The notes beneath the pieces were generated by a model that was given only the letters and a program-made list of their open reading frames with translations, did not search any database and was not told where the DNA came from. Shown here in pieces: positions 4,342 through 61,802 of a stretch of 64,000 nucleotides of DNA. Origin of the DNA: a bacterium (GTDB lineage: Bacteria; Patescibacteriota; Minisyncoccia; UBA6257; WO2-44-18); the NCBI GenBank assembly GCA_030646995.1, contig JAUSKF010000002.1, forward strand, positions 12,092 to 76,091, in the 5' to 3' direction. The position numbers and the translations under genes were made by a program. The number at the start of each line of letters is the position of its first letter. Within the stretch, counting starts at the first letter, position 1.

Positions 4342-5051
4342 TGAATAGGGTAAAATCCTGGGCGATAGCTGAAGTGGTTACTATTTTTGCGTTAGTGATG
4401 GTGGCCATCTGGTTTTTCCAAGAAAACTACGTCCCTTTTGTTGTGATACTAATCGCAATCGCGGGAGTGATGATTGTTAGTTCTGCGGTGCGGATGCGTG
4501 GCGTTAAAGTCGGGGACTATACTGAAACGCTCGGGCTTGGTTGCTTGGAGAAGAACGAGGATGGCCGCAATTACTTAAAGCTGGATTGCAGTTGGATCTG
4601 GAAGCTGGCGCTCCTGGCACTGCTCGGACTGACACTGATCCTGATCGCCGGATACTTCTTTAGGCCGGAGTTCTGGCTAGAGAGAAAATTCTGGCGAAAA
4701 ACGTTTTCCGGTGTTCAGGGCTATATTGTTTGGGGAGTGATCCAGCAATTTGTTCTGCACGCCGGAGTAACAAGCAGACTCTACTCGATCTTTGTTAAAA
4801 GTCCTGACCCGAAAAACTTTGAGAGAAGAGCCGCCCTGCTCACCGCCTTGGTGTCCGGAGTTCTGTTCTTTCTAGCGCACACTCCGAATCCAAAGCTGAT
4901 GATCGTGACTCCGATTGCCGGAGCAGCCACGGCTTACGTTTTTCTGAACTGCCGCAATGTCTGGATATTGGGCATCGCGCATGGGATTCTGGGAACGGCT
5001 GTCGAGCATTGTTTGCCCCTGAACATCAATGTCGGTCCTAATTATTGGTAG
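4341..5051 (+). CDS. Membrane protein, divergent CPBP-like paralogue (degenerate catalytic motifs)
   Basis: ATG 4341 overlaps the previous stop (TAATG); multi-TM; FFLAH (FxxxH) retained but motif 1 is QQFVLH instead of EExxxR. Confidence 0.45.
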   Translation: MNRVKSWAIAEVVTIFALVMVAIWFFQENYVPFVVILIAIAGVMIVSSAVRMRGVKVGDYTETLGLGCLEKNEDGRNYLKLDCSWIWKLALLALLGLTLILIAGYFFRPEFWLERKFWRKTFSGVQGYIVWGVIQQFVLHAGVTSRLYSIFVKSPDPKNFERRAALLTALVSGVLFFLAHTPNPKLMIVTPIAGAATAYVFLNCRNVWILGIAHGILGTAVEHCLPLNINVGPNYW

Positions 5052-5093
5052 AAGCCCCGAGAAATCGGGGCTTTTTGTTATAATCAAAATATT

Positions 5094-5498
5094 ATGTCGG
5101 TGATGTTGCTGAAAATATTTGTTGTAGCTTTTTTAATCAATGTGATCTGGGAATTTTCCCATTGCTGGCTTTATGCAACCATTCAGAAAATGAAAGGAGA
5201 GGATATCGTGAAGTTACTTTTGAAAATGTCCGTTAAAGACGGGGTTTGGATATCAATATTTTATTTAATTACCTATGCGGTATTTCAGAATCTGAATCCT
5301 TGGGATAACTGGATGCAGGTGGCCATTTTTGCAGTGATCGCTCTGATGTTTGCTTTCATTGATGAAAAGATTTCCGTGACTATGGGCCGTTGGGAATATG
5401 GTCCGAAGATGCCGCTAGTTTATGGTGTCGGCCTTACTCCGCTCTTAGAATTGGCCGTGACCGGTCTATTGACTTTTTGGGTCGTGACCAGCTTTTAA
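5094..5498 (+). CDS. Small hypothetical membrane protein
   Basis: 134-aa ORF with 3-4 hydrophobic segments; no recognisable motif. Confidence 0.35.
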   Translation: MSVMLLKIFVVAFLINVIWEFSHCWLYATIQKMKGEDIVKLLLKMSVKDGVWISIFYLITYAVFQNLNPWDNWMQVAIFAVIALMFAFIDEKISVTMGRWEYGPKMPLVYGVGLTPLLELAVTGLLTFWVVTSF

Positions 5499-5503
5499 TT
5501 TTT

Positions 5504-5584
5504 ACCTACTGCTCCAAATTTTCAATTCGAAGAAGCAGAAAATTTGGTTAGCAGTAGCAATCCCGAGCGTAGCGAGGGACTACC
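5504..5584. repeat. Family A two-hairpin intergenic repeat element, copy 1 of 4
   Basis: tacctactgctccaaattttcaattcgaagaagcagaaaatttggttagcagtagcaatcccgagcgtagcgaggga; near-identical copies at 40154, 47258 and 57948. Confidence 0.8.
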
Positions 5585-5825
5585 TACTCTCGATTAGCTT
5601 TAATTTCTTTTCCCTGTTCCATCCCTTTATCTCCATTTCCCTTTTTAATGCCGAGCCGCGAGTTTTACGTTTCTCCGTGTAAAGAATTTTTACAATGCGT
5701 TTTGCTCTTGTGTACTTCGCGCCGATGCCGGCTTTGTGTTCGGCAAAGCGGCGTTTAACATCGGTCGTGATTCCGGTATAAAGACTTTTGTCGGCGCAAA
5801 GCGCCATATATACAAACCAGGTCAT
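5580..5825 (-). CDS. GIY-YIG nuclease family protein (UPF0213-like)
   Basis: VYMALCADKSLYTGITTDVKRRFAEH… matches the GIY-YIG fold signature; 81 aa. Confidence 0.75.
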   Translation of the reverse strand: MTWFVYMALCADKSLYTGITTDVKRRFAEHKAGIGAKYTRAKRIVKILYTEKRKTRGSALKREMEIKGWNREKKLKLIESR

Positions 5826-6329: not shown

Positions 6330-6350
6330 GTTTTGATTTTTTTGCATAAC

Positions 6351-6490
6351 CAAAGCGTAGGGAATAGTTTCGAGGAACATGCCGGAGCCCCGACGGCTTG
6401 GTCTTAATAGCCTCGGGGCGAGGGAGAGGCGAAATTGTTCGCTGGAAACAATTTACGCCGTTTCCGAGGGGCTATTCCCGGAGTCCTTGA
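6351..6490. ncRNA. Family B conserved structured element, copy 1 of 2 (unclassified ncRNA or structured repeat)
   Basis: ~95% identical flanks with copy at 34826-34984; internal hairpin differs with compensatory changes (aaattgtt…aacaattt vs aattgagc…gctcaatt). Confidence 0.5.
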
Positions 6491-11177: not shown

Positions 11178-11210
11178 GTACCAGACTTATAAAAAATAAA
11201 TAGAATGGTA
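11178..11210 (+). promoter_or_regulatory. GTACCAGACTTATA…ATGGTA motif (single copy) overlapping the M23 peptidase start codon
   Basis: gtaccagacttataaaaaataaatagaATGgta; same motif in three tandem copies at 48965-49078. Confidence 0.4.
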
Positions 11211-14715: not shown

Positions 14716-15285
14716 TTATGACCTATTGTCAATTGCGCTGGCCAGGGTTTCTTCGTCGGCAAATTCAATTTCTCCGCCCGTGGGGATGCCCCGGCCAAGA
14801 CGAGTTATTTTTCCAACGGTTTCTTTGAGCTCTTGGGCAATCAGGGAGGCGTTGATGTCGCCGTAAGTAGTCGGATTCATCGCTAAAATTGCTTCCTCTG
14901 CGGAGTTAATTGTCCTCAAGCGCAGCTTTTGCATACTGGTAAGAAAGCCGTCCTTTTTGAGTTCTCCCAAAACCAAATACCTTCCGTCAAACTTTTTAGC
15001 TTTTTCCAAAGAAATCAAATCCGTTTCTTTTTCCACGATTGCCACTAAGTCTTTCCGGCGGTTTGGATTAGAGCAGATGGCGCAAATTTCAGAATCCGGA
15101 GTAGTGGCAAAGCAAAATGAGCAGACCGCCAATGAGTTTAAGCCGCTGACCGCCTGCGCCAACTCCAGCACGTCCGCCCTTCCCTGATTTGCCAGATAAA
15201 AAGCTAAACGGGTAGCTTGGCGAGGTCCGATGCCCGGAAGCTTCGCTACTGCTTCAACGAATTTTTTAATAGGCTCCGGTACCAT
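14716..15285 (-). CDS. recR: Recombination protein RecR
   Basis: HhH (KLPGIGPRQATRLAFYL), C4 zinc finger (CSFCFATT…CAICSNP) and Toprim domain. Confidence 0.9.
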   Translation of the reverse strand: MVPEPIKKFVEAVAKLPGIGPRQATRLAFYLANQGRADVLELAQAVSGLNSLAVCSFCFATTPDSEICAICSNPNRRKDLVAIVEKETDLISLEKAKKFDGRYLVLGELKKDGFLTSMQKLRLRTINSAEEAILAMNPTTYGDINASLIAQELKETVGKITRLGRGIPTGGEIEFADEETLASAIDNRS

Positions 15286-15328
15286 TGTAGGATATTTTTA
15301 TTATTTAAATATTTAAACGTTTAAACCT
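15286..15328 (-). promoter_or_regulatory. Conserved TTTAAA-rich palindromic upstream module (copy upstream of recR; overlaps the dnaB stop)
   Basis: Reverse complement reads TTTAAACGTTTAAATATTTAAATAATAAAAATATCCTACAATG; near-identical modules before cysS, groEL and fusA. Confidence 0.55.
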
Positions 15329-18065: not shown

Positions 18066-18098
18066 CCTTTTTATTTAAATATTTAAATTTTTAAACAT
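18066..18098 (-). promoter_or_regulatory. Conserved TTTAAA-rich palindromic upstream module (copy upstream of cysS)
   Basis: Reverse complement reads TGTTTAAAAATTTAAATATTTAAATAAAAAGGGTG(start). Confidence 0.5.
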
Positions 18099-18117
18099 TG
18101 CAATATTGCGCTTCGCG

Positions 18118-19026
18118 CTATAGCCAGCCCTTTCTTCTAAAAGAGACGACCAGCGTGACTAGAATTATACCAATAATTACGAAGATGGCCCAAAAAGTGA
18201 GCTGGTGCTCAACAATATATCTTTCAACGAAGTTGATTGAAGCGAGAGATAAAAAGATGGACAAGGGAACGGCCAGAAAAGCGAAGATTGTGAATCGTTG
18301 CATTACCGAGTTGGTTTTTGCGTTAAGAAGCTGGCCGTTAGTGGTCTCCAGAGCTTCAATGGTCGCGCGATAATTTTCCACGTGCTGGGTTACCTTAGAA
18401 TAATCGCCGACCAAATCATCAAAATAGATTCCGAAGTCTTCTCCCCAAAATTTCACTCCGACGTCTCCAAGGGAAGTCAGTAAAATTTCTTGCGGAGCGC
18501 TGATGATGCTGTAGTCGAGAACGTCGCGCTTGGCGTAAGAAATCTTTTGCAATAACTGCGTCTCCTTGCCTTTGAAAATCTCTTTTGATATTTCCTGAAT
18601 GTTGTCTTCCACGTGGCGCAACTGGCGCATTGAGAAGCTGATAATCGCCTGAATTAAATAGTAGCCACAGCGTGCTGTGTCCTGCATCGCCTGATTTTTG
18701 AAATTTTGATTATTACTTATAGTCCTCATAAATGTATCAATCGGCTCCAAATCTTCATAATGGATGGTAATAATCTTATTTTTAGTTATCAAGAAATCCA
18801 CCTCCGCTTTTCTGGAGGTTTTTAAAGATTTATCGTAGATAGGCAGATGATAGGTAAGGAACAAATAATTATTGTAAAATTCAACGCGGGATCGACTGGA
18901 AAAATGCAGCAGCTCATCCAAAATGATCGGGTGAAAGTCATGTTGTTTCTTCAAAAAATCAATGTCCGTTTTAGTGGGCTTTAGGATGTCTATCCAGGTA
19001 ATTTTAGGGGATTTGGTTATCCACAT
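18118..19026 (-). CDS. CorA-like divalent-cation transporter family protein
   Basis: Soluble N-domain plus 2 C-terminal TM helices; …MQRFTIFAFLAVPLSIFLSLASINF… resembles the CorA pore region (the GMN motif is degenerate). Confidence 0.5.
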   Translation of the reverse strand: MWITKSPKITWIDILKPTKTDIDFLKKQHDFHPIILDELLHFSSRSRVEFYNNYLFLTYHLPIYDKSLKTSRKAEVDFLITKNKIITIHYEDLEPIDTFMRTISNNQNFKNQAMQDTARCGYYLIQAIISFSMRQLRHVEDNIQEISKEIFKGKETQLLQKISYAKRDVLDYSIISAPQEILLTSLGDVGVKFWGEDFGIYFDDLVGDYSKVTQHVENYRATIEALETTNGQLLNAKTNSVMQRFTIFAFLAVPLSIFLSLASINFVERYIVEHQLTFWAIFVIIGIILVTLVVSFRRKGWL

Positions 19027-19082
19027 AGGGGCAGCAACTAGCCACTAGCCATTAGCGACTAGCACTACTATAATTATACAAT

Positions 19083-19547
19083 ATGGTAATGACTCTGAAG
19101 AAACCTCTTTTTTGGATTAGCGTTCTAGCTTTAGTTGGCTTGGGTTTAGTGATGGCGAATTACGCTTTCGGTTTCTGGCCATTCACTTCTCCAAAAATAA
19201 AAATCGTCTGGTCTCAAATTGGAGATATTCCCGCCGACTGTGGCAAGGGTTATGTTTTGCAGTCAATTAATCCGCGTATCTGCGTTTCGCTAATCACCGG
19301 ATCGGTTGCGCCTTCCAGTTCTGCTAGCGGCCCGGGATGCACGGGAAATGTCGGGGCCACCGGTCCGGGGCTCACTTCCGGTACCGCTATCTGTTCCGTG
19401 CTCTGCCCAGCAGGCAAAAAACCTCAGATCGTGAAATATACAGGCGTCGGCACGCCGTTCGTATCGTTTGATCAGGCGCAAGGGAAATATATTTGTAACG
19501 GTAAACCGACTGTCGGAGCGAGCAGTATTCAGTGCGAATGCCAATAG
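19083..19547 (+). CDS. Secreted Cys-rich protein, short member of a tandem paralogue family
   Basis: Signal peptide (…GLVMANYAFG|); the C-terminal ~100 aa aligns with the C-terminus of the next gene (CxxNVGATGPGLTSGTAICxxLC…GTP…GKxTVGxSSIxCxC). Confidence 0.6.
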   Translation: MVMTLKKPLFWISVLALVGLGLVMANYAFGFWPFTSPKIKIVWSQIGDIPADCGKGYVLQSINPRICVSLITGSVAPSSSASGPGCTGNVGATGPGLTSGTAICSVLCPAGKKPQIVKYTGVGTPFVSFDQAQGKYICNGKPTVGASSIQCECQ

Positions 19548-19572
19548 TTCGGCATGGTATAATAAAAAATAT

Positions 19573-20742
19573 ATGAAGTTAATTAAAAAACCTTTGTTTT
19601 GGACGAATGTTGTTTCCATTTCAGTAACCGGAGTAATGGTTGCCGGTCTAGCATTCGGCTGGACCAATCCAAAAGAAACTCCTCCGAACGGATCCGGAGA
19701 GGTAATCGTTACTTCAGACAGAAAAGTTGGCGTTGGCACTTTGTCGCCGACACAAAAATTAGATATTACCGGTTATCTGGTTGGCCGTTCGGGTTTTTGC
19801 TTGGGCAAAGATGATTTGACGGTTGTTCCCAGTCCAACTGCAGTTGATGGCCTATTCTCATTATCCAACACCGTTTCAGTAAGCTCCCACAGCACTACAG
19901 ATTCACGTGAACGAACTTTTCCATCTTCTCATAGCGTCTCTCTTAGCGCCATGCATGACACTTTATCCAGTGCTGGCTATACGGATAAAAGTACATTGAG
20001 GACTGCCAGTGAAAGTGGCGCAGTTACTCTACGTGACGCGGCGACAGAAAGTGGTATTACTACCAGTGTTACTAGCGCGGCGGGTACAGTCAGCACAGTT
20101 GCCTATAAGGCCGTTGGTTGTCGCACTACTTGGCCAGCTCCGGGAGTCGGAGTTGAAAAAACAGAAGGCGCGGAAATAGTTTCCGGATCAGGTTTATCAG
20201 TTATTAAAACAAAATCGTCAATTGCTACTTTTGGGACCCCAAGCGATCAAATCGTCAATAAAAACCGTTTAGCGAAATTCGCATCAGACAAGCGGGGGCA
20301 AGAGACAATCGGAAACGCTAATATTATTGATGATGGATCTACTGTATCGGTCACCAGTAATTTTTCTTTCAGCGGTAAGTTGGTTGGAGGCGCTGTACCG
20401 TGGGGCAATCTTTCAGAAATTCCCAAAATAGATTGTGGTGCCGGCAAGGTTTTGCAGGGCATCTTCCCAACAAAATGCGTCACTTTGTCCGCTGGCGCTC
20501 CGGCTCCAGCTCCGGCTCCAGCTCCCGGCCCGGCAACCTGCACTTCTTCTATACCCGCTACTGGCCCAGGTCCGACCAGTGGAACAGCAATTTGCGGTCT
20601 AACCTGTGCAACCGGAGCAAAAGTTGTCAGCTATATCGGCTCCGGCACTCCATATGCGGCCCTGACCACTCCACCGACCGGATATACCTGTAGTGGGAAA
20701 TATACCGTTGGACCCAGTAGCATCACCTGTTCTTGCTTATAA
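19573..20742 (+). CDS. Secreted Cys-rich surface protein (tail-fibre-like PTQKLD repeat region, AP-repeat linker, conserved C-terminal Cys domain)
   Basis: ATG 19573 (MKLIKKPLFW…) parallels the neighbours' N-termini; the track ORF start at 19468 is an upstream extension; AFG|WTNP signal cleavage motif; APAPAPAPAPGPA linker. Confidence 0.6.
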   Translation: MKLIKKPLFWTNVVSISVTGVMVAGLAFGWTNPKETPPNGSGEVIVTSDRKVGVGTLSPTQKLDITGYLVGRSGFCLGKDDLTVVPSPTAVDGLFSLSNTVSVSSHSTTDSRERTFPSSHSVSLSAMHDTLSSAGYTDKSTLRTASESGAVTLRDAATESGITTSVTSAAGTVSTVAYKAVGCRTTWPAPGVGVEKTEGAEIVSGSGLSVIKTKSSIATFGTPSDQIVNKNRLAKFASDKRGQETIGNANIIDDGSTVSVTSNFSFSGKLVGGAVPWGNLSEIPKIDCGAGKVLQGIFPTKCVTLSAGAPAPAPAPAPGPATCTSSIPATGPGPTSGTAICGLTCATGAKVVSYIGSGTPYAALTTPPTGYTCSGKYTVGPSSITCSCL

Positions 20743-20746
20743 AAAT

Positions 20747-21580
20747 ATGAAGATTAGAAATTTAGCCAACGTAATCTCTTTTTCAGTAGCGGGCTTAGTG
20801 ATTGCCGGAGTCGCTTTTGGCTGGACGAATCCAAGCGCTACTCCTCCGGACGTTGGTGGGGCTTTGAAAGTTGATTCAGCAACCGGCAATGTTGGCATTA
20901 ACTTGGGAACTGCTGCCCCGACCCAAAAATTGGACGTTGGTGGATATGTTAAAGGAAGAACTGGTCTTTGCATTGGAACTGGCGATGTTGTCGGTGTTGA
21001 TTGCCGAACCTCCTGGCCAACCGGAACCGGCAATGTCAGTGTTGTTGGTAGTGGAACTTCCGGAAAATTAACTAAATTCACCGGAGCAACGACTATTGGC
21101 AATTCTAATCTCACTGAAGGCTCTACCGGAAATATCAGTATCGGTGGGACTCCCGGGTCAACTTACAAGCTGGACGTTACCGGGAAGATCAATGGTACAG
21201 AGATCTGTATCGCCGGAGTCTGCAAGACCACATGGCCCTCCGGATTAACCGGCAGCGGTACGACCGGAAAAATTCCGAAATGGACAGGAGCCTCCTCTCT
21301 GGGAGATTCTTCATTGACTGAATCCGGAGGTATTACGAGCGTTGGCCCGACCAATGATCTTTCTGCCGATGGAAATATCTGGGGTTCGCAATCGAACACG
21401 AGCATAGGTCCTAGTGCCGCATATGGAACTCACCCTTGGATTGTTCCTGGTGGAGTTTACGGAGCTGGAACGGGAGGATGGGAATTAAAATGCCCAGATG
21501 GTCAATTTATGATTGGTATTACTCAAACAGTTAACAGCTCCAATTATCCTGGAGCTAAGATTCTCTGCGCCAAGCTCTAA
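20747..21580 (+). CDS. Secreted surface protein paralogue (Gly/Thr-rich beta-repeat region)
   Basis: MKIRNLANVISFSVAGLVIAGVAFGWTNPSATPP…; shares GNVGI…PTQKLDVGGY…GRTGLCIG and CRTSWP blocks with the previous gene. Confidence 0.6.
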   Translation: MKIRNLANVISFSVAGLVIAGVAFGWTNPSATPPDVGGALKVDSATGNVGINLGTAAPTQKLDVGGYVKGRTGLCIGTGDVVGVDCRTSWPTGTGNVSVVGSGTSGKLTKFTGATTIGNSNLTEGSTGNISIGGTPGSTYKLDVTGKINGTEICIAGVCKTTWPSGLTGSGTTGKIPKWTGASSLGDSSLTESGGITSVGPTNDLSADGNIWGSQSNTSIGPSAAYGTHPWIVPGGVYGAGTGGWELKCPDGQFMIGITQTVNSSNYPGAKILCAKL

Positions 21581-21599: not shown

Positions 21600-21628
21600 T
21601 TGACAGCCGGCTTTTAATTTCTTATAAT
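21600..21628 (+). promoter_or_regulatory. Sigma-70-like promoter of grpE-dnaK (TTGACA-17-TATAAT), giving a leaderless transcript
   Basis: TTGACA 21600-21605, 17-nt spacer, TATAAT 21623-21628, ATG at 21636 (7 nt downstream). Confidence 0.55.
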
Positions 21629-21635
21629 ATTGGCC

Positions 21636-22088
21636 ATGGCTACTATAGAGGTTCCCCAAGAAGGAGAATTAGAAAAATTAATCAAAGAAAAAGAGGAGTA
21701 CTTGAATGGCTGGAAAAGAGCAAAGGCTGACCTGATAAATTATCAAAAGGATGAATCTGTGCGGGCCCAGGAATTTATGAAGATTGCCAATACGGCCATA
21801 CTCCTTGATTTGATACCAATTTTAGACAGCTTCGATCTCGCAATGGCCGCTTCCCAATCTGATAAAAGCGCCGCGGTAATAAAATCTCAATTTGAGGAAG
21901 TTTTAAAAAGATATGGAGTAGAGAAAATATCTATTGAGCTTGGAAAGCCATTGGATACCAAAAGCCAGGAATCGGTAGGGGAGATGGAATCTAGTCACCC
22001 GCCGGGATCGGTAGCAGAGGAGGTAAGTAAGGGGTATGTAATGAATGGGAGGGTGATTCGTCCGGCAAAGGTTAAGGTCGCAAAATAA
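21636..22088 (+). CDS. grpE: Nucleotide exchange factor GrpE (short form)
   Basis: Coiled-coil N-terminus plus C-terminal beta-domain (…GYVMNGRVIRPAKVKVAK); directly upstream of dnaK; the ATG start implies leaderless mRNA. Confidence 0.8.
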   Translation: MATIEVPQEGELEKLIKEKEEYLNGWKRAKADLINYQKDESVRAQEFMKIANTAILLDLIPILDSFDLAMAASQSDKSAAVIKSQFEEVLKRYGVEKISIELGKPLDTKSQESVGEMESSHPPGSVAEEVSKGYVMNGRVIRPAKVKVAK

Positions 22089-34764: not shown

Positions 34765-34825
34765 CCCGAATTAAACAAAGCGAATAAGGCTTTACCCCAA
34801 TGCTCTGAATAAGATTCCGTTCCCT

Positions 34826-34984
34826 CAAAGCGCAGGGAATAGTTTCGAGGAACGTGCCGGAGCCCCGACGGCTTGGTCTTATTAGCGTCGGGGCGAGGGA
34901 GAGGCAAATTGAGCCGCAGGCTTGCCCGCCTTAGGCGGGAGCTCAATTATGCCGTTTCCGAGGGGCTATTCCTGGAGCCCTTGA
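34826..34984. ncRNA. Family B conserved structured element, copy 2 of 2
   Basis: Flanks ~95% identical to 6351-6490; central hairpin replaced by a longer hairpin with compensatory pairing. Confidence 0.5.
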
Positions 34985-36122: not shown

Positions 36123-36416
36123 ATGACTAATTTCAAACCGCTCTCAAATCACTTATTTATTGAACCTCTCAATACCGAGAAGGCCACGAAGTCCGGAATT
36201 GTTTTGCCGGAAACTGCCGAGAAAGAAAAGCCGATGGTGGGAATTGTGATAGCGGTCGGTGAAGGAAAACGAAATGAAAAAGGCGATGTTGTGCCGATGG
36301 CGGTAAAAGTCGGCGACAAGGTTTTATTTAAAAAATACGGCCCCGACGAAATTGAAGTAGAGGGGAAAAAATATCTGGTCGGAGAGGAAGATGATGTCCT
36401 CGCGATCCTGGAATAA
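36123..36416 (+). CDS. groES: Co-chaperonin GroES
   Basis: …KPLSNHLFIEPL…GIVLPETAKEKP…GEVVAVG… canonical Hsp10; 97 aa. Confidence 0.9.
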   Translation: MTNFKPLSNHLFIEPLNTEKATKSGIVLPETAEKEKPMVGIVIAVGEGKRNEKGDVVPMAVKVGDKVLFKKYGPDEIEVEGKKYLVGEEDDVLAILE

Positions 36417-36461
36417 TAATATTTAAACGTTTAAATATTTAAATAATAAAAATATTCTACA
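36417..36461 (+). promoter_or_regulatory. Conserved TTTAAA-rich palindromic upstream module (copy upstream of groEL)
   Basis: TATTTAAACGTTTAAATATTTAAATAATAAAAATATTCTACAATG; no CIRCE element seen. Confidence 0.55.
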
Positions 36462-38081
36462 ATGAGTAAACAAATTCTATTCAACGAAAAAGCCCGCGAG
36501 GCGATGAAAAAAGGTATTGATAAGCTGGCTCAAGCTGTCATTGCGACTCTTGGCCCGCGCGGCAAGGCGGTAGTTATTGAAAAGGGCTATGGCGCTCCGC
36601 AGGTTACTTTTGACGGCGTTACTGTTGCCAAAGAAATTGAACTCGAAGATAAATTCGAGAATCTTGGCGCTGATTTAATTAAACAGGCCGCTGATAAAAC
36701 CAATGATGCCGTTGGTGATGGCACCACTACTTCTATTGTATTGGCGCATTCTTTGATTGAAGAGGGCGAAAAGATGCTCAAATCCAAGGACGTAAATGTA
36801 ATTCAGCTCGCCGAAGATTTAAAGAAAGGCGCTCTTATTTTGGCGAAAAATCTTGAAGCTCAAAAAGAACCGGTGAATGATCTGGCGAAATTGGCTGAAG
36901 TTGCTTCACTTTCCGCGAAAGACAAAACCATCGGCGGCTTAATCGCTGAAGTAATTCACAAAGTTGGAAAGGAAGGCGTAGTCACCGTGGAAGATTCAAA
37001 CACCATCAGTAATTCGTATGAAGTAGTGGAGGGTATGCAGTTTGATCGTGGTTTCATCTCGCAATATATGATTACCAACAGCGAGCGGATGGAGTCCTCT
37101 TTGGAAAATCCGTATATTTTGGTTACCGATAAGAAAATTTCCGCCATCGCGGAGATTCTGCCGATTTTGGAAAAGGTGGTGCAAAGCGGAAAAAAGGAAA
37201 TGGTAATTATCGCCGATGATGTGGAAGGCGAGGCTCTGACTACTCTGGTAGTCAACAAACTCCGCGGCGTGTTCACCGTGCTTCCTTTGAAAGCTCCGGG
37301 ATTCGGAGATAGAAAAAAAGAAATGCTTCAGGATATCGCCACAATTACCGGCTCTCAATTTATTTCTGAAGAGCTTGGCAAAAAGCTGGAGGCGGTAGAA
37401 CTGGCCGATCTTGGTACGGCTCATCGGGTTGTGTCTAATAAAGACACCACCACAATCGTGGGCGGAAAAGGCGATAAGAAAAAAATTGAAGAGCGTGTTG
37501 CTCAATTGAAAGCCCAACTGCAAAAAGCGGAGTCCGGTTTTGATAAAGATAAATTACAGGAACGTTTGGGTAAGCTAGCCGGCGGAGTAGCCGTCATTAA
37601 AGTTGGCGCTCCGACCGAATCTGCCCAGAAAGAATTAAAAGATAGAGTTGAAGATGCTGTGGCCGCCACGAAGGCCGCGATGGAAGAAGGGATTGTGCCG
37701 GGAGGTGGAATGGCTTTGTTCTACGCAGGAATGGAATTACGTCATCCGCCAGCTGGCGGAAGCAGTATTGCCAACGATATTTTAATTGCCGCCTCCGAGG
37801 CTCCTATCCGCGCCATTGTGGAAAACTGCGGCCAATCTCCTGATTTTATTTTGAACCAACTTCCGAAGAAAGCGGGCTGGCAGGGTTTTGATGCCAACAA
37901 AGGAAAGATGGGGGATTTAAAGGCCGCCGGCATTGTGGATCCGCTGAAAGTCACCAAGACTGCCTTAATGAACGCCGTTTCCGTTGCCGCAAACTATCTC
38001 ACCATTGGCGCCGCCGTTACCGATATTCCTAAGAAAGAATCTCCAGTCGCCCCGCAGATGGGAGGAATGGGGGAGTACTAG
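36462..38081 (+). CDS. groEL: Chaperonin GroEL
   Basis: …[17 protein letters not shown]…, [10 protein letters not shown]…, C-terminal GGMGG-like tail; 539 aa. Confidence 0.95.
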
Positions 38082-40117: not shown

Positions 40118-40150
40118 AACCGGTACGCCCGCTTGCAAAAGCGGGTTTTT
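40118..40150 (+). terminator. Rho-independent terminator after guaB
   Basis: ccgcttgcaaaagcgg followed by tttttttt. Confidence 0.6.
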
Positions 40151-40153
40151 TTT

Positions 40154-40233
40154 ACCTACTGCTCAAAATTTTCAATTCAAAGAAGTAGAAAATTTTGTGT
40201 GCAGTAGCAATCCTGGGCGTAGCGTAGGATTAT
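40154..40233. repeat. Family A two-hairpin intergenic repeat element, copy 2 of 4
   Basis: tacctactgctcaaaattttcaattcaaagaagtagaaaattttgtgtgcagtagcaatcctgggcgtagcgtaggatta. Confidence 0.8.
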
Positions 40234-40291
40234 CTTGCAAAAAATCAACAGAAGTGTTAATATCTCGCCAGAACCCTAACAGGAAAGGAGA

Positions 40292-47224: not shown

Positions 47225-47252
47225 AACCGCTTCTTATAGGGGCGGTTTTTTT
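47225..47252 (+). terminator. Rho-independent terminator after bcp
   Basis: aaaccgcttcttataggggcggttttttt. Confidence 0.6.
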
Positions 47253-47257
47253 GTTGT

Positions 47258-47354
47258 TACCTACTGCTCAAAATTTTCAATTCAAAGAAGTAGAAAATTT
47301 TGTGTGCAGTAGCAATCCTGAGCCTGCCTGCCGGCAGGCGTAGCGTAGGACTAC
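47258..47354. repeat. Family A two-hairpin intergenic repeat element, copy 3 of 4 (with a 17-bp palindromic insertion)
   Basis: Same element as 40154-40233 but hairpin 2 carries the inserted cctgcctgccggcaggc. Confidence 0.8.
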
Positions 47355-48964: not shown

Positions 48965-49078
48965 GTACCAGACTTATAGAAATTTAATGGGATGGTACGC
49001 GTACCAGACTTATAGAACTAAAGTGGGATGGTACTGCGTGCGTACCAGACTTATAGAAATTTAATAGGATGGTATAAT
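48965..49078 (+). repeat. Three tandem ~34-37-bp direct repeats (GTACCAGACTTATAGAA-N7-GGGATGGTAC) upstream of the copper cluster; the last unit ends in TGGTATAAT
   Basis: Units at 48965-48998, 49001-49034, 49042-49078; a related single unit at 11178-11210. Confidence 0.75.
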
Positions 49079-57916: not shown

Positions 57917-57947
57917 AGATGATTTCCAGCCCCTTTCGGGGCTTTTT

Positions 57948-58029
57948 TACCTGTTGCTTAAAATTTTCAATTCGCAGAAGCCGAAAATTTTTCCAGCAAC
58001 AGCAATCCTGAGCGCAGCGTAGGATTACC
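57948..58029. repeat. Family A two-hairpin intergenic repeat element, copy 4 of 4 (compensatory stem changes)
   Basis: tacctgttgcttaaaattttcaattcgcagaagccgaaaatttttccagcaacagcaatcctgagcgcagcgtaggattacc; ctgttgct/agcaacag replaces ctactgct/agcagtag. Confidence 0.8.
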
Positions 58030-58120
58030 TTAAAAATTATTATAATTGACTTTTCGGCTCTAGCGTGCTAAATTATCGCCAGTCAGTTGAGTTCTTCGAA
58101 AACCCAATAAGGAGCAGCCT

Positions 58121-59610: not shown

Positions 59611-59651
59611 CCTGAAAAGTTAATAAAGCTTCTAAAAAGAAACCTGAATAA

Positions 59652-59693
59652 TGTTTAAATATTTAAACATTTAAATAATAAAGATATCCTACA
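59652..59693 (+). promoter_or_regulatory. Conserved TTTAAA-rich palindromic upstream module (copy upstream of fusA)
   Basis: TGTTTAAATATTTAAACATTTAAATAATAAAGATATCCTACAATG. Confidence 0.55.
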
Positions 59694-61802
59694 ATGGCAA
59701 GATTATATCCAGTTGAAAGAGTCCGAGACTTCGGAATTATTGCGCACATTGATGCAGGAAAGACTACTGTGTCCGAGCGGGTGCTTTTTTATACCGGCGT
59801 TTCCCACAAAATCGGTGAAGTGCACACCGGCGACACTGTTATGGACTGGATGGAGCAGGAGCGCGAGCGTGGCATCACTATTACCGCCGCCGCTACCACC
59901 GCTTTTTGGATTCCAAGCTATGCAAATGGCGACAAAACAAAAGAATATCGCTTCAACCTGATTGATACTCCCGGCCACATCGACTTTACAGTTGAGGTAA
60001 AGCGTTCTTTGCGTGTTTTGGACGGCGCAGTCGTGGTATTCGACGGCGTATCCGGCGTAGAACCGCAATCCGAAACCAACTGGCGCTATGCCGATGACTA
60101 CGGCGTACCGAGACTTTGCTTCATTAATAAATTGGATCGTATGGGAGCGAGCTTTGAAAATAGCTTGGCTTCGATTCGCGAGCGCTTAAACCCGAATGCA
60201 ATAGCCATTCAGTTGCCGATTGGCTTGGAGGCCGCCTTTGAGGGTCTGGTGGATTTAATCAAAATGAAGGCGTATAAGTTCGAGGGCGAGAAAGGTTCCG
60301 ATATCATAGAAATTGAAATTCCGGAAAATATGAAAGTGGAGGCTCTTAAGCGCCGAAAGGAATTGATTGAAAAGATTGTTGAACAGGACGATGCGTTGAT
60401 GGCTTTGTATCTCGACGGGCAGGAACCAAGCGTTGATGAACTAAAGCGCGTACTTCGCAAAGCTACTTTGGAATTGAAAATCGTGCCGGTCTTAACCGGT
60501 TCGGCTTTGAAAAACAAAGGCGTACAGCTGATGTTGGACGCGGTTGTGGATTATCTACCGTCTCCAGCCGACATTAAGCCGACCAAAGCTACCGACTTGA
60601 AAACTAATCAGGAAGTTTTTCGTAAACCGGACGACAAGGAACCGTTTACGGCGTTGGCTTTTAAAATCGCAACCGATCCTTTCGTGGGCAGCTTAACTTT
60701 TTTTCGAGTCTATTCCGGAACCCTCAAACGTGGAAGCTACATCCAAAACTCTAATAAGGGGACACAGGAACGCGTCGGCCGTATTTTAAAAATGCATGCC
60801 AACCAACGGGAAGAAATCGAAGAAATTTATGCCGGTGAAATCGGCGCTTTGGTAGGTATGAAAGCCACAACTACCGGTGATACACTTTGCGATCCTGAAT
60901 CAAATCCGGTAATGCTTGAGAAAATTATCTTCCCACAGCCGGTTATCGGCATCCGCATTGAGCCGAAAACAAAAGCTGACCAAGAAAAAATGGGTATGGC
61001 TTTGCATCGCTTAGCTGACGAAGATCCGACTTTCCGCGTGGCCGGCGATCCGGAAACAGGAGAGACCATCATTTCCGGTATGGGTGAGTTGCACTTGGAA
61101 ATTATTGTGGACCGTATGAAGCGCGAATTCGGCGTGGACGCCAACGTGGGCAGGCCACAAGTAGCTTATAAAGAAACCATTAAAGGAAAAGCTGAAGCCG
61201 AAGGTAAATACATCAAGCAGTCCGGCGGTAAGGGTCAGTACGGACACGTTTGGATTAAAATGGAGCCGCTGGAGCGTGGCAAGGGATTTGAATTCGTCGA
61301 TGAAACCAAAGGAGGTTCCGTTCCGAAAGAATTTATTAAGCCTGCGATGAAAGGTATCGAAGAAGCGATGGCCCGCGGTGTTGTGGCCGGCTTCCCGATG
61401 ATTGACGTGATGGTTACTCTTTTTGATGGTTCTTTCCACGAAGTAGACTCTTCGGAATCTGCTTTCAAAATCGCCGGCTCAATGGCTTTCCAGGAAGGCG
61501 CCAAGAAAGCGAAGGCGATTATGCTTGAGCCGATTATGAAAATACAGGTTTTGGCCCCGGCTAATTATTTGGGAGATATCACCGGAGATTTAAGCTCGAA
61601 ACGTGGTCAGATTAATGAAATGAGCGACCGAATGGGTGGCATTAAAGTTGTGGATGCTAAGGTTCCGCTTTCGGAAATGTTCGGCTACGCAACCAAACTT
61701 CGCTCTATGACGCAAGGCCGCGGAAACTTCACTATGGAATTCTCCAGCTATGAAGAAGTGCCGGCAAGCGTTGCGGCTTTGATCAAAGACCGAAAGAAAT
61801 AG
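59694..61802 (+). CDS. fusA: Elongation factor G
   Basis: [22 protein letters not shown] GTPase motifs and EF-G domains II-V; 702 aa. Confidence 0.95.

Follow-up and report, generated by a model that had tools for sequence, protein, structure and literature searches.

The 64,000-nt window analysed here, a stretch of contig JAUSKF010000002.1 numbered below from its first nucleotide, carries a compact islet of three co-oriented plus-strand genes between corA, which lies upstream on the minus strand (18118-19026), and grpE (21630-22088) downstream. These genes, hereafter genes 1, 2 and 3, code for proteins of 154, 389 and 277 aa, respectively, in which a shared N-terminal leader is combined with fibre-like and Cys-rich modules. 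The motifs that characterise the family are confined to these three genes within the window, and exact copies of the proteins carry the locus tags Q7S83_00650 and Q7S83_00655. Their nearest named relatives belong to ‘Parcubacteria group bacterium Gr01-1014_19’ and to ‘Patescibacteria group bacterium’ metagenome-assembled genomes (MAGs), several of which are from Hainich groundwater (its wells are the source of the related loci L001, L009 and L021). This agrees with the assumption of a cell like those of the candidate phyla radiation, made in a preliminary description that was drawn from the sequence alone. The genes and the promoter-like sites around them are as follows:

19083..19547, plus strand: gene 1, a leader and then a Cys-rich domain without a fibre-type stalk (open reading frame; orthologues)
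19573..20742, plus strand: gene 2, a leader, a fibre-type module and a gene 1-type Cys-rich terminal domain (open reading frame; start backed by orthologues)
20747..21580, plus strand: gene 3, a leader, two fibre-type repeats and a small, putatively Cys-closed tip ending in CAKL (open reading frame; orthologues)
19046..19074, plus strand: promoter-like site before gene 1, TAGCCA-17-TATAAT (consensus scan; the -10 box ends 8 nt before the ATG)
19558..19563, plus strand: TATAAT box 9 nt before the gene 2 ATG (direct reading of the sequence)
21600..21628, plus strand: grpE promoter, a perfect TTGACA-17-TATAAT and the downstream edge of the variable slot (consensus scan; conserved in relatives)

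The starts given in the preliminary description were confirmed. Those at 19573 and 20747 yield open reading frames (ORFs) shorter than the longest mechanical ones and are used by all orthologues; we accept the starts because of the orthologue alignments and the TATAAT boxes that precede genes 1 and 2 by 7-10 nt. A gap of 5 nt lies between the gene 2 stop and the gene 3 start. Antisense ORFs in the region (e.g., 19290-19739 and 20737-21114) overlap plus-strand genes under clear purifying selection and were judged spurious. Gene 1 has 17 orthologues with 50-100% identity, always adjoining leader-sharing genes, gene 2 has nine (44-87% identity), and the orthologues of gene 3, P0013-P0017, are 38-65% identical to it.

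All three proteins begin with related leaders:

19083..19172, plus strand: gene 1 leader MVMTLKKPLFW...ANYAFG, aa 1-30 (similarity to the gene 2 leader; hydrophobicity)
19573..19686, plus strand: gene 2 leader, aa 1-29 (...LAFG), and the conserved WTNPKETPP, aa 30-38 (orthologue comparison)
20747..20848, plus strand: gene 3 leader, aa 1-25, and WTNPSATPP, aa 26-34 (comparison with gene 2)

BLASTP aligns the leaders of genes 1 and 2 over 34 aa with 44% identity (E=2e-6). A heuristic feature check, as distinct from a dedicated predictor, finds in the three leaders an n-region with a charge of +2/+3 (2-3 basic residues), an h-region of 19-23 aa, and A-F-G at positions -3 to -1 before W or F; the hydrophobic segment of gene 1 measures 23 aa with a mean Kyte-Doolittle value of 1.9. 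Distant relatives have xFA|W, VIA|W, VYA|W or ALS|W at this site, so that all leaders obey the -3/-1 rule of signal peptidase I, and Trp occupies +1 across the leader family, the distant relatives included, save in gene 1 itself, where F follows AFG. The charge, the hydrophobic stretch and the small residues at -3 and -1 in AFG|W thus fit the AxG signal-peptidase site that had been proposed. The common start that was described for all three genes holds as far as AFG; beyond it, WTNPxxTPP is found only in genes 2 and 3, gene 1 reading FWPFTSPK. In terms of these features the leaders look like Sec signals, and the features would suit an uncleaved signal anchor with an interfacial Trp just as well.

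Past the leader, genes 2 and 3 share an order of elements, namely W-T-N-P-x-x-T-P-P, the motif GxVG(I/V)GTxxPTQKLD(I/V), a two-Cys hairpin, and a module of the type GKxxKFTGxxxIGNSxLxE:

19723..19773, plus strand: gene 2 capping-loop motif KVGVGTLSPTQKLDITG, aa 51-67 (inside the N-terminal module common to genes 2 and 3)
19792..20136, plus strand: gene 2 Cys hairpin (GFC76LG ... GC183RTTWP), split by an insertion (in relatives the two Cys are 4-10 residues apart)
19807-20118, plus strand: gene 2 hairpin insertion of 104 aa (aa 79-182), 37.5% Ser+Thr (comparison with relatives)
20263..20376, plus strand: gene 2 ‘LAKF...IGNxNIxDDGxxVxV’ module, aa 231-268 (by eye equivalent to the GKLTKFTGATTIGNSNLTEGSTGNISIG module of gene 3)
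20885..21331, plus strand: gene 3 tandem duplication, copy 1 at 20885-21127 and copy 2 at 21128-21331
21332..21577, plus strand: gene 3 tip, aa 196-277, with the loop C249PDGQFMIG...AKILC274AKL (conserved in P0013-P0017 and P0063)

The capping-loop block and the C(R/K)T(T/S)WP block that had been reported from genes 2 and 3 are indeed present in both, their N-terminal 77 aa being 49% identical (BLASTP, E=4e-21); in relatives the hairpin reads GLCIGxDCRxxWP. The pairwise BLASTP comparison of genes 2 and 3 did not align the LAKF stretch with the GKLTKFTGATTIGNSNLTEGSTGNISIG stretch. In gene 3 the unit is duplicated internally: a BLASTP comparison of the halves matches aa 47-127 with aa 128-195 at 47% identity (E=7e-16), and each copy comprises a capping loop, a Cys hairpin CxxxxC(R/K)TxWP, and a GKxxK(F/W)TGxxxxGxSxLTE module. 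The leader/WTNP parts of the N-terminal modules of genes 2 and 3 are further joined at the nucleotide level by an 85-nt direct repeat with 73% identity, which may also offer limited homology for exchange within the genome.

A second set of modules links genes 1 and 2 at their C-terminal ends:

19200..19286, plus strand: gene 1 ‘xVWxxIxxIPxDC...C’ putative disulfide-loop module, aa 40-68 (aligns with gene 2 aa 274-303)
19338..19544, plus strand: gene 1 terminal six-Cys beta-rich domain, aa 86-154 (conserved Cys; AlphaFold2)
20392..20532, plus strand: gene 2 ‘VPWxxLxxIPxxDC...C’ loop, aa 274-303, followed by the (AP)n linker, aa 308-320 (similarity to gene 1)
20539..20739, plus strand: gene 2 terminal six-Cys domain, aa 323-389 (46% identity to gene 1; also ends P0054-P0056)

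The C-terminal domain of about 100 aa that had been recognised in both proteins is recovered by BLASTP at 46% identity over 114 aa (E=7e-23), and the (AP)n linker that had been noted in gene 2 (GAPAPAPAPAPGP) lies within this region. In both genes 1 and 2, a (V/I)xWxxIxxIPxxDC...C loop leads via a low-complexity linker to the six-Cys beta-rich terminal domain; the gene 2-type loop module recurs in P0017, P0058, P0061 and P0063. All eight Cys of the loop and the terminal domain are invariant or nearly so among 26 sequences (in gene 1, C67 of the loop and C86 of the six-Cys domain are invariant, and C53 and the other five Cys nearly invariant), and the Cys totals of the three proteins are even, namely 8, 10 and 6. 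The AlphaFold2 (AF2) model of gene 1 has a predicted local distance difference test score (pLDDT) of 68 overall and about 80 over the C-terminal 55 aa (aa 100-154), which are all beta. Foldseek searches with this model returned no match at E<0.1 in PDB or BFVD and only generic small beta-sandwiches, and a sequence profile of the Cys-rich domain found nothing in PDB. An exhaustive profile search among 1.84 billion cluster representatives recovered 17 proteins with E<=1e-3, just six of which have E<1e-10. In three of these six (P0054-P0056) the shared part is only the last ~75 residues, placed C-terminally on unrelated and partly Pro-rich proteins, which fits a portable tip. Judged by these searches, the Cys-rich domain is a rare, portable and always C-terminal unit without a recognisable fold.

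The position of the islet is strikingly constant. In all related loci with visible flanks the order is recR-dnaB-cysS-corA (minus strand), then the islet, then grpE-dnaK-X-dnaJ; both flanks are seen in L001, L005, L007, L009, L012, L018, L019, L021, L022, L024 and L026, and L004, which begins inside gene 1, has the downstream flank only. This slot is kept down to 72% identity in DnaK and 46% in CorA relative to the window. Contig scans of genomes and of metagenomes with a narrow leader pattern returned 4 and 7 loci, respectively, the wider WTxPxxxPP family lying beyond their reach. The content of the slot differs from locus to locus:

Window and L005: gene 1, gene 2 and a CAKL-type gene 3
L001, L004, L009 and L021: gene 1, gene 2 and a protein of 189-195 aa with the same leader and first motif and an unrelated C-terminal part
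L007: gene 1, a 321-aa Gly-rich protein on the same N-terminal module, and the CAKL type
L012: three leader-sharing genes, gene 1 being absent
L018: two genes
L019 and L024: two genes, an apparent truncated relic of leader and N-terminal module, and an unrelated small ORF
L022: three short genes
L026: one gene and a Peptidase_S26 signal peptidase (E=3e-15)

Loose single-linkage clustering sorts the parts past the first motif into 8 unrelated groups among 29 proteins from 11 loci, and in L001, L004 and L009 the gene 3 tip is replaced by unrelated sequence. The modular shuffling envisaged in the preliminary description is thus borne out as an exchange of C-terminal parts between syntenic loci. 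Instead of copy-number variation in a freely expanding array, there is one fixed slot with 1-4 leader-sharing genes per locus.

The comparison with L004 is the most informative as to how such exchanges occur. Genes 1 and 2 of the two loci are 87% identical, DnaK 83% and GrpE 63%, and gene 3 of L004 matches that of the window over its first ~80 residues only. At the nucleotide level, similarity spans the end of gene 2, the leader of gene 3 and the GGCAATGTTGGCATT (GNVGI) motif, ends a few codons past the latter, and resumes at the grpE promoter. We read this pattern as the footprint of a cassette replacement, with the conserved N-terminal module as one crossover region. Further, the closest relative of the window is L004 by genes 1 and 2 and L007 by DnaK and GrpE, and the proportion of synonymous differences (pS) to L004 is 0.60-0.66 in genes 1 and 2 as against 0.77-0.78 in dnaK and grpE. 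From this one pair, with its saturated sites, the discordant rankings and the lower pS hint that the islet was exchanged more recently than its flanks diverged.

Copies that are retained evolve under strong constraint. For orthologues of genes 1 and 2 and of gene 3, the ratio of nonsynonymous to synonymous substitution rates (dN/dS) is 0.03-0.15 where computable, a quantity that can only be bounded because of saturation at synonymous positions (pS 0.6-0.8). In relation to the closest relative, genes 1 and 2 are conserved at least as well as DnaK. Only the Ser/Thr-rich insertion of gene 2 changes fast, with a proportion of nonsynonymous differences of 0.19-0.35 against 0.04-0.06 in the other mature-protein segments (versus L004). 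Such purifying selection on retained copies implies that the diversity of the islet arises from module exchange and not from rapid substitution, and the label ‘fast-evolving’ that the proteins had been given does not apply at the level of substitutions. The opposite picture, that of a conserved orthologue under purifying selection only, is half right: position and retained copies are conserved, but the content is a mosaic.

Several side observations concern the slot in particular genomes. In L019 (7008-7449, frame 3) and L024 (4905-5267), a truncated duplicate of the leader and N-terminal module (FRKPLFWTNIIAFIFAGWLIAGLAFGWTNPGSSPPGGGG...VGKTNPY, after which similarity stops) lies between two intact slot genes and looks like a relic of cassette turnover. 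The contigs L025 and L026, compared around ~4899-5705, are near-identical, with six differing positions in 1.7 kb; a single-G indel in L025 cuts the fibre-like gene of the slot from 268 to 153 aa, for which strain-level inactivation, phase variation and an assembly error are all conceivable causes. Directly past the fibre-like gene, both contigs carry a Peptidase_S26 (signal peptidase I) gene (L026 5715-6278, L025 5714-6277; Pfam E=2.8e-15), and tblastn finds no S26 gene like the L026 enzyme in the 64 kb window. Proteins named after Gr01-1014_19 (P0002 versus P0013/P0041) derive from two contigs (L004 and L005), each with grpE-dnaK-dnaJ and with differing slot contents; that bin probably mixes two related populations. 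The third-party assemblies L011-L013 label close relatives ‘uncultured Candidatus Saccharibacteria bacterium’, in conflict with the names of the nearest MAGs.

Profile comparisons connect the repeats of genes 2 and 3 to known receptor-binding fibres. The gene 3 family profile matches PDB chain 8OND (Bd2133 of Bdellovibrio bacteriovorus) at E=1.8e-9 in two stretches, the best of ~140 residues with two motifs, and the family motif aligns residue by residue with GNLGLGTAAPTSALHV and GLVGINTAAPLQKLHV of Bd2133; the gene 2 family profile matches the same chain at E=2.4e-6 through profile positions 41-142. Four further chains of this group, annotated as ‘cell wall surface anchor family protein’ (8OJN, 8ON4, 8OML and 8OL4), follow at E=2.5e-5 to 0.011. 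Bd2133 is one of the Mosaic Adhesive Trimer (MAT) proteins, whose fibres are intertwined trimeric beta-helices with kinship to the S74 tailspikes of phages (Caulton et al. 2024, PMC10769870), with a capping-loop consensus of V-G-G/N-pi-x-x-P-x-x-x-L (PMC10769870). On the phage side, PHROG 9942 (‘tail fiber protein’) matches 17 of 25 gene 3 relatives, with a best E=2e-18, PHROG 3269 (‘tail protein’) matches 12 of the 25, and the relative P0029 passes Pfam Shufflon_N (PF04917) at E=1e-10 through its repeat region. The link to fibres holds at the level of profiles and families only, because the proteins of the window match no family and no genome of a cultured phage themselves. The preliminary description had compared the repeats to tail fibres or beta-helices: the PTQKLD blocks are indeed a capping-loop repeat by profile, and no structure model lends support, so the tail-fibre-like reading is backed by repeat homology and not by any structure model. 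A distinct connection is offered by the 37-aa module GNVGIGTxxPTQKLDVxGYVKGRxGLCIGNDCRxxWP, which is 70-86% identical between Patescibacteria and Candidatus Altiarchaeales proteins (P0019, P0024, P0025 and P0027); this likeness suggests that a Cys-stapled fibre unit may be shared across domains of life. A scan of IMG/VR with it gave three viral contigs that have the capping-loop half only, the Cys hairpin pattern being confirmed on none.

The closest parallel in overall plan is with the non-S74 subgroup of MATs (Bd2133 and Bd1334). Both groups have a signal peptide (by the heuristic check in the present case), beta-helix-type fibre repeats with a capping loop, matched by profile to the Bd2133 crystal chain, and one conserved end opposed to C-terminal tips that are exchanged, with tips in the MATs that fold independently and in some cases have novel folds; Bdellovibrio lives on other bacteria, and the present lineage is probably host-dependent as well. 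In the MATs a conserved N-terminal domain is kept for retention and the adhesive tips at the other end are diversified (PMC10769870). The differences are equally clear. MATs are ~600-1,300 aa long, 2-6 times the 150-390 aa found here, and all 21 of them have a beta-rich domain of ~130 aa directly after the signal peptide (PMC10769870), whereas only ~20 residues separate leader and first capping loop in our proteins (from aa 25 to aa 47 in gene 3 and from aa 29 to aa 51 in gene 2). An S74 chaperone/protease lies at the C-terminus of 13 of the 21 MATs (PMC10769870); Peptidase_S74 has no match at E<=1 in the window proteins, which could therefore only be of the non-S74 type. Conversely, the CxxxxCRxxWP hairpins and the invariant WTNPxxTPP start of our proteins have not been described for MATs. 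The 21 MATs reside in one genome as against one fixed slot with 1-4 genes here, and the bearer in our case is a monoderm-type Patescibacterium. Published tables of MAT-like proteins from other taxa contain no Patescibacteria (PMC10769870), and our literature search found no description of such fibre proteins in this phylum. Going by these sequence features, the window proteins are not MAT members in the strict sense and represent a compact version of adhesins of the MAT/tail-fibre kind.

Tail fibres and tailspikes of phages that carry repeats of the GNVGIGT type (PHROG 9942, 3269 and 18345; the T5 L-shaped fibre and the K1F endosialidase stalks) share with them the repeat motif and a modular build with swapped receptor-binding tips, a likeness underlined by the PHROG 9942 matches of the gene 3 relatives. 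They differ in that the window proteins have a secretion leader, a housekeeping chromosomal context and no S74 intramolecular chaperone, fall below PHROG thresholds, and match no phage genome. The PilV shufflon adhesins of IncI plasmid thin pili likewise join alternative C-terminal tips, which determine partner specificity, to a constant N-terminal part, and are touched by the PF04917 match of P0029. However, the window proteins have no prepilin leader, invertible segments or sfx repeats, and their tips vary between genomes, not within one.

Taken together, we propose that the three genes constitute a small operon-like islet for Sec-exported, disulfide-bonded surface proteins. The leader (KKPLFW, ~20 hydrophobic residues and AFG) is followed in genes 2 and 3 by WTNPxxTPP and one or two capping-loop repeats (GNVGIGTxxPTQKLDV), which the CxxxxCRTxWP hairpin would staple through a disulfide. 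The leader, WTNP and repeat parts would trimerise into a short stalk, with the conserved N-terminal end staying at the envelope of the producer, retained either via the uncleaved helix or via the conserved mature N-terminus after cleavage by signal peptidase I. The C-terminal part would form an independent tip, an 8-Cys beta-rich domain in gene 2 and a Cys-closed loop domain ending in CAKL in gene 3, and gene 1 would present a gene 2-type tip right after the leader, close to the membrane and without a stalk. The tips are swapped between related genomes as cassettes, with crossovers in the leader and first fibre motif upstream and in the constant grpE promoter region downstream. An ultrasmall and probably host-dependent bacterium would most likely employ exchangeable tips to bind surface structures of another cell. 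The exchange of the outer ends makes these genes candidates for host-cell recognition, and host attachment would be a reasonable use for such proteins in the Patescibacteria, whose cultured members are episymbionts. For this reading, short trimeric surface fibres with exchangeable tips, exported and stabilised by disulfides on a tail-fibre/MAT plan but much shorter, we estimate a probability of roughly 0.55.

A number of observations weigh against it. Proteins 1-3 of the window match no Pfam, NCBIfam or PHROG family (the last at E<=0.1), tblastn of gene 3 against 50,697 phage genomes gave no match, and no lectin or adhesin fold was matched by the tip domain. Gene 1 has neither the PTQKLD fibre motif nor a capping loop, and gene 2 has just one clear capping loop. 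The AF2 monomer of gene 3, built on a 25-sequence alignment, reaches a pLDDT of 58 and was left out of the fold search for that reason; a low monomer score would be expected of a chain that folds solely as a trimer, yet it is not evidence of a trimer. By-eye inspection of the slot-protein sequences showed neither a lipobox nor an LPXTG-type anchor. The host-dependent lifestyle of this uncultured lineage is assumed from its phylum. Finally, Bd2133 spans ~14-15 nm with 370 residues (PMC10769870), and scaling from it predicts a length of ~8-15 nm for proteins of 150-390 residues, which may be too short to pass a cell wall and S-layer and leaves room for a purely envelope-internal role.

This last point leads to the view that the proteins are structural parts of the envelope, spacers or struts of the wall or S-layer without a role in cell recognition, and that their variable C-termini reflect relaxed constraint or evasion of phages or immunity instead of a choice of ligand. 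Their shortness, the fixed position by housekeeping genes in all relatives, the strong purifying selection on retained copies, and tips without a detected adhesin or lectin fold would all accord with such a role. What speaks against it is the distribution of the variation: only the distal part is replaced wholesale, while the leader and N-terminal module are kept, which is the pattern of receptor-binding proteins (PMC10769870), and at least 8 unrelated C-terminal architectures would be surprising in a pure strut. We therefore regard this view as unlikely, though with a real chance of being correct. Dedicated signal peptidase I enzymes for fibre proteins have precedent (SipW for TasA, and the archaeal ‘thread’-type pili), and the Peptidase_S26 gene inside the slot of L025/L026 recalls such pairs. 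It could thus be supposed that the islet encodes an extracellular filament other than a type IV pilus, processed by signal peptidase I, with the WTNPxxTPP segment as donor strand and genes 1-3 as major and minor subunits. The mature N-terminus, which is invariant throughout a broad family and directly follows a site of the signal peptidase I type, and the several leader-sharing genes in tandem would be in keeping with this. Yet the S26 gene is absent from the slot of the window and of its closer relatives, gene 1 has no WTNP segment, the conserved part matches trimeric fibre repeats and not a pilin or TasA fold, no Pfam match to TasA/camelysin-type families was obtained, and a slot that varies between 1 and 4 genes in number and type would be odd for fixed filament machinery; a filament of this kind is accordingly a distinctly poor prospect.

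Two further explanations have been largely refuted. The matches of relatives to PHROG tail-fibre families and the presence of the module's capping-loop half on three viral contigs of IMG/VR could point to a prophage remnant or a domesticated phage tail-fibre module, but there are no phage genes nearby, the corA and grpE-dnaK flanks are present in every relative, all three proteins begin with a secretion leader, a feature that the tail fibres of virions lack, and neither the phage-genome search nor the hairpin pattern on the viral contigs provides support, so that very little probability attaches to this origin. Even less attaches to tip adhesins that resemble type IV pilins and owe their diversity to a shufflon or to a diversity-generating retroelement (DGR). 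The Shufflon_N (PilV constant region) match of P0029 and the comparable logic of constant N-terminal and variable C-terminal parts had made this worth considering, but the window proteins have no Shufflon_N match and their leaders (KKPLFWTNV...AFGW) have no Glu in the hydrophobic segment and no prepilin G|F-x-x-x-E motif. Neither sfx-type inverted repeats nor a template/variable repeat pair is found in or around the genes: the inverted repeats of the gene region are only four chance-level pairs of 15-17 nt, and no direct repeat of at least 30 nt in the window involves 19083-21580, as a DGR would require. The variation is again between genomes and not in invertible segments within one.

Little is known of the way in which ultrasmall Patescibacteria find a host cell and keep hold of it, and work on the question has so far centred on the type IV pili of Saccharibacteria (PMC11623550). 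The present locus, from an uncultured lineage of Parcubacteria type, offers a compact and easily recognised candidate system, with a fixed genome address, a constant base, swappable tips and sequence kinship to the receptor-binding fibres of phages and of the predator Bdellovibrio. A bolder extension, which we consider doubtful, is that the corA-grpE islet is the partner-recognition locus of the whole Parcubacteria-type lineage, with miniature trimeric fibres that all dock to the cell by a common leader/WTNP base and whose tips, including the orphan 8-Cys fold, pass between populations through homologous recombination at the conserved N-terminal module. Were it true, the tip type and not the phylogeny of the genome would decide which host cell can be attached to. 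If tips bind partner cells, their type could predict host range from metagenomes, and with the orphan Cys-rich domain a new kind of binding fold would have come to light; otherwise, the locus would still illustrate cassette exchange at a constant slot in very small genomes.

The promoter regions of the islet show several further features. The gene 1 -10 box and its spacing to the ATG are kept in L001, L005, L007 and L009, and the box ahead of gene 2 is TATAAT in the same four loci and TACAAT in L004. The grpE -10 box ends ~7 nt before a conserved ATG, which implies a leaderless grpE-dnaK transcript; the mechanical grpE ORF starts at a TTG 1 nt past the box. Genes 1 and 2 have the same layout as grpE, with a -10 box 7-10 nt ahead of the ATG. 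Between the corA start and the gene 1 -10 box, a 34-nt insertion of CTAGC(C/G)A-type repeats (GGGGCAGCAACTAGCCACTAGCCATTAGCGACTAGCAC) occupies part of 19027-19065; L001, L005, L007 and L009 do not have it, their spacer between corA and gene 1 being only ~20 nt. The insertion may be a regulatory site or a small insertion scar.

Elsewhere in the window we observed four families of repeated elements. A duplicated GC-rich segment of ~150 nt with hairpin potential (6336-6490 and 34811-34984; 92-94% identity) matches no Rfam family at the gathering threshold and may represent a pair of small RNAs. An intergenic element of ~100 nt is present in four copies with 75-80% identity (5492-5591, 40142-40241, 47247-47346 and 57937-58036) and holds the internal palindrome TACCTACTGCTC...AAAATTTTC...GAAAATTTT...GCAGTAGCAATCC. 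The AT-rich motif TTTAAACGTTTAAATATTTAAATAATAAAAATATTCTACAATG recurs at 15283-15325 (minus strand), 18068-18099, 36415-36464 and 59647-59696, two of the copies being 98% identical; it adjoins an ATG in the copies at 15283-15325, 36415-36464 and 59647-59696 and has the look of a common promoter or operator. For the motif GTACCAGACTTATAGAAATTTAATGGGATGGTA we count three copies in tandem at 48965-49074 and three dispersed ones at 11178, 28317 (minus strand) and 35906 (minus strand).

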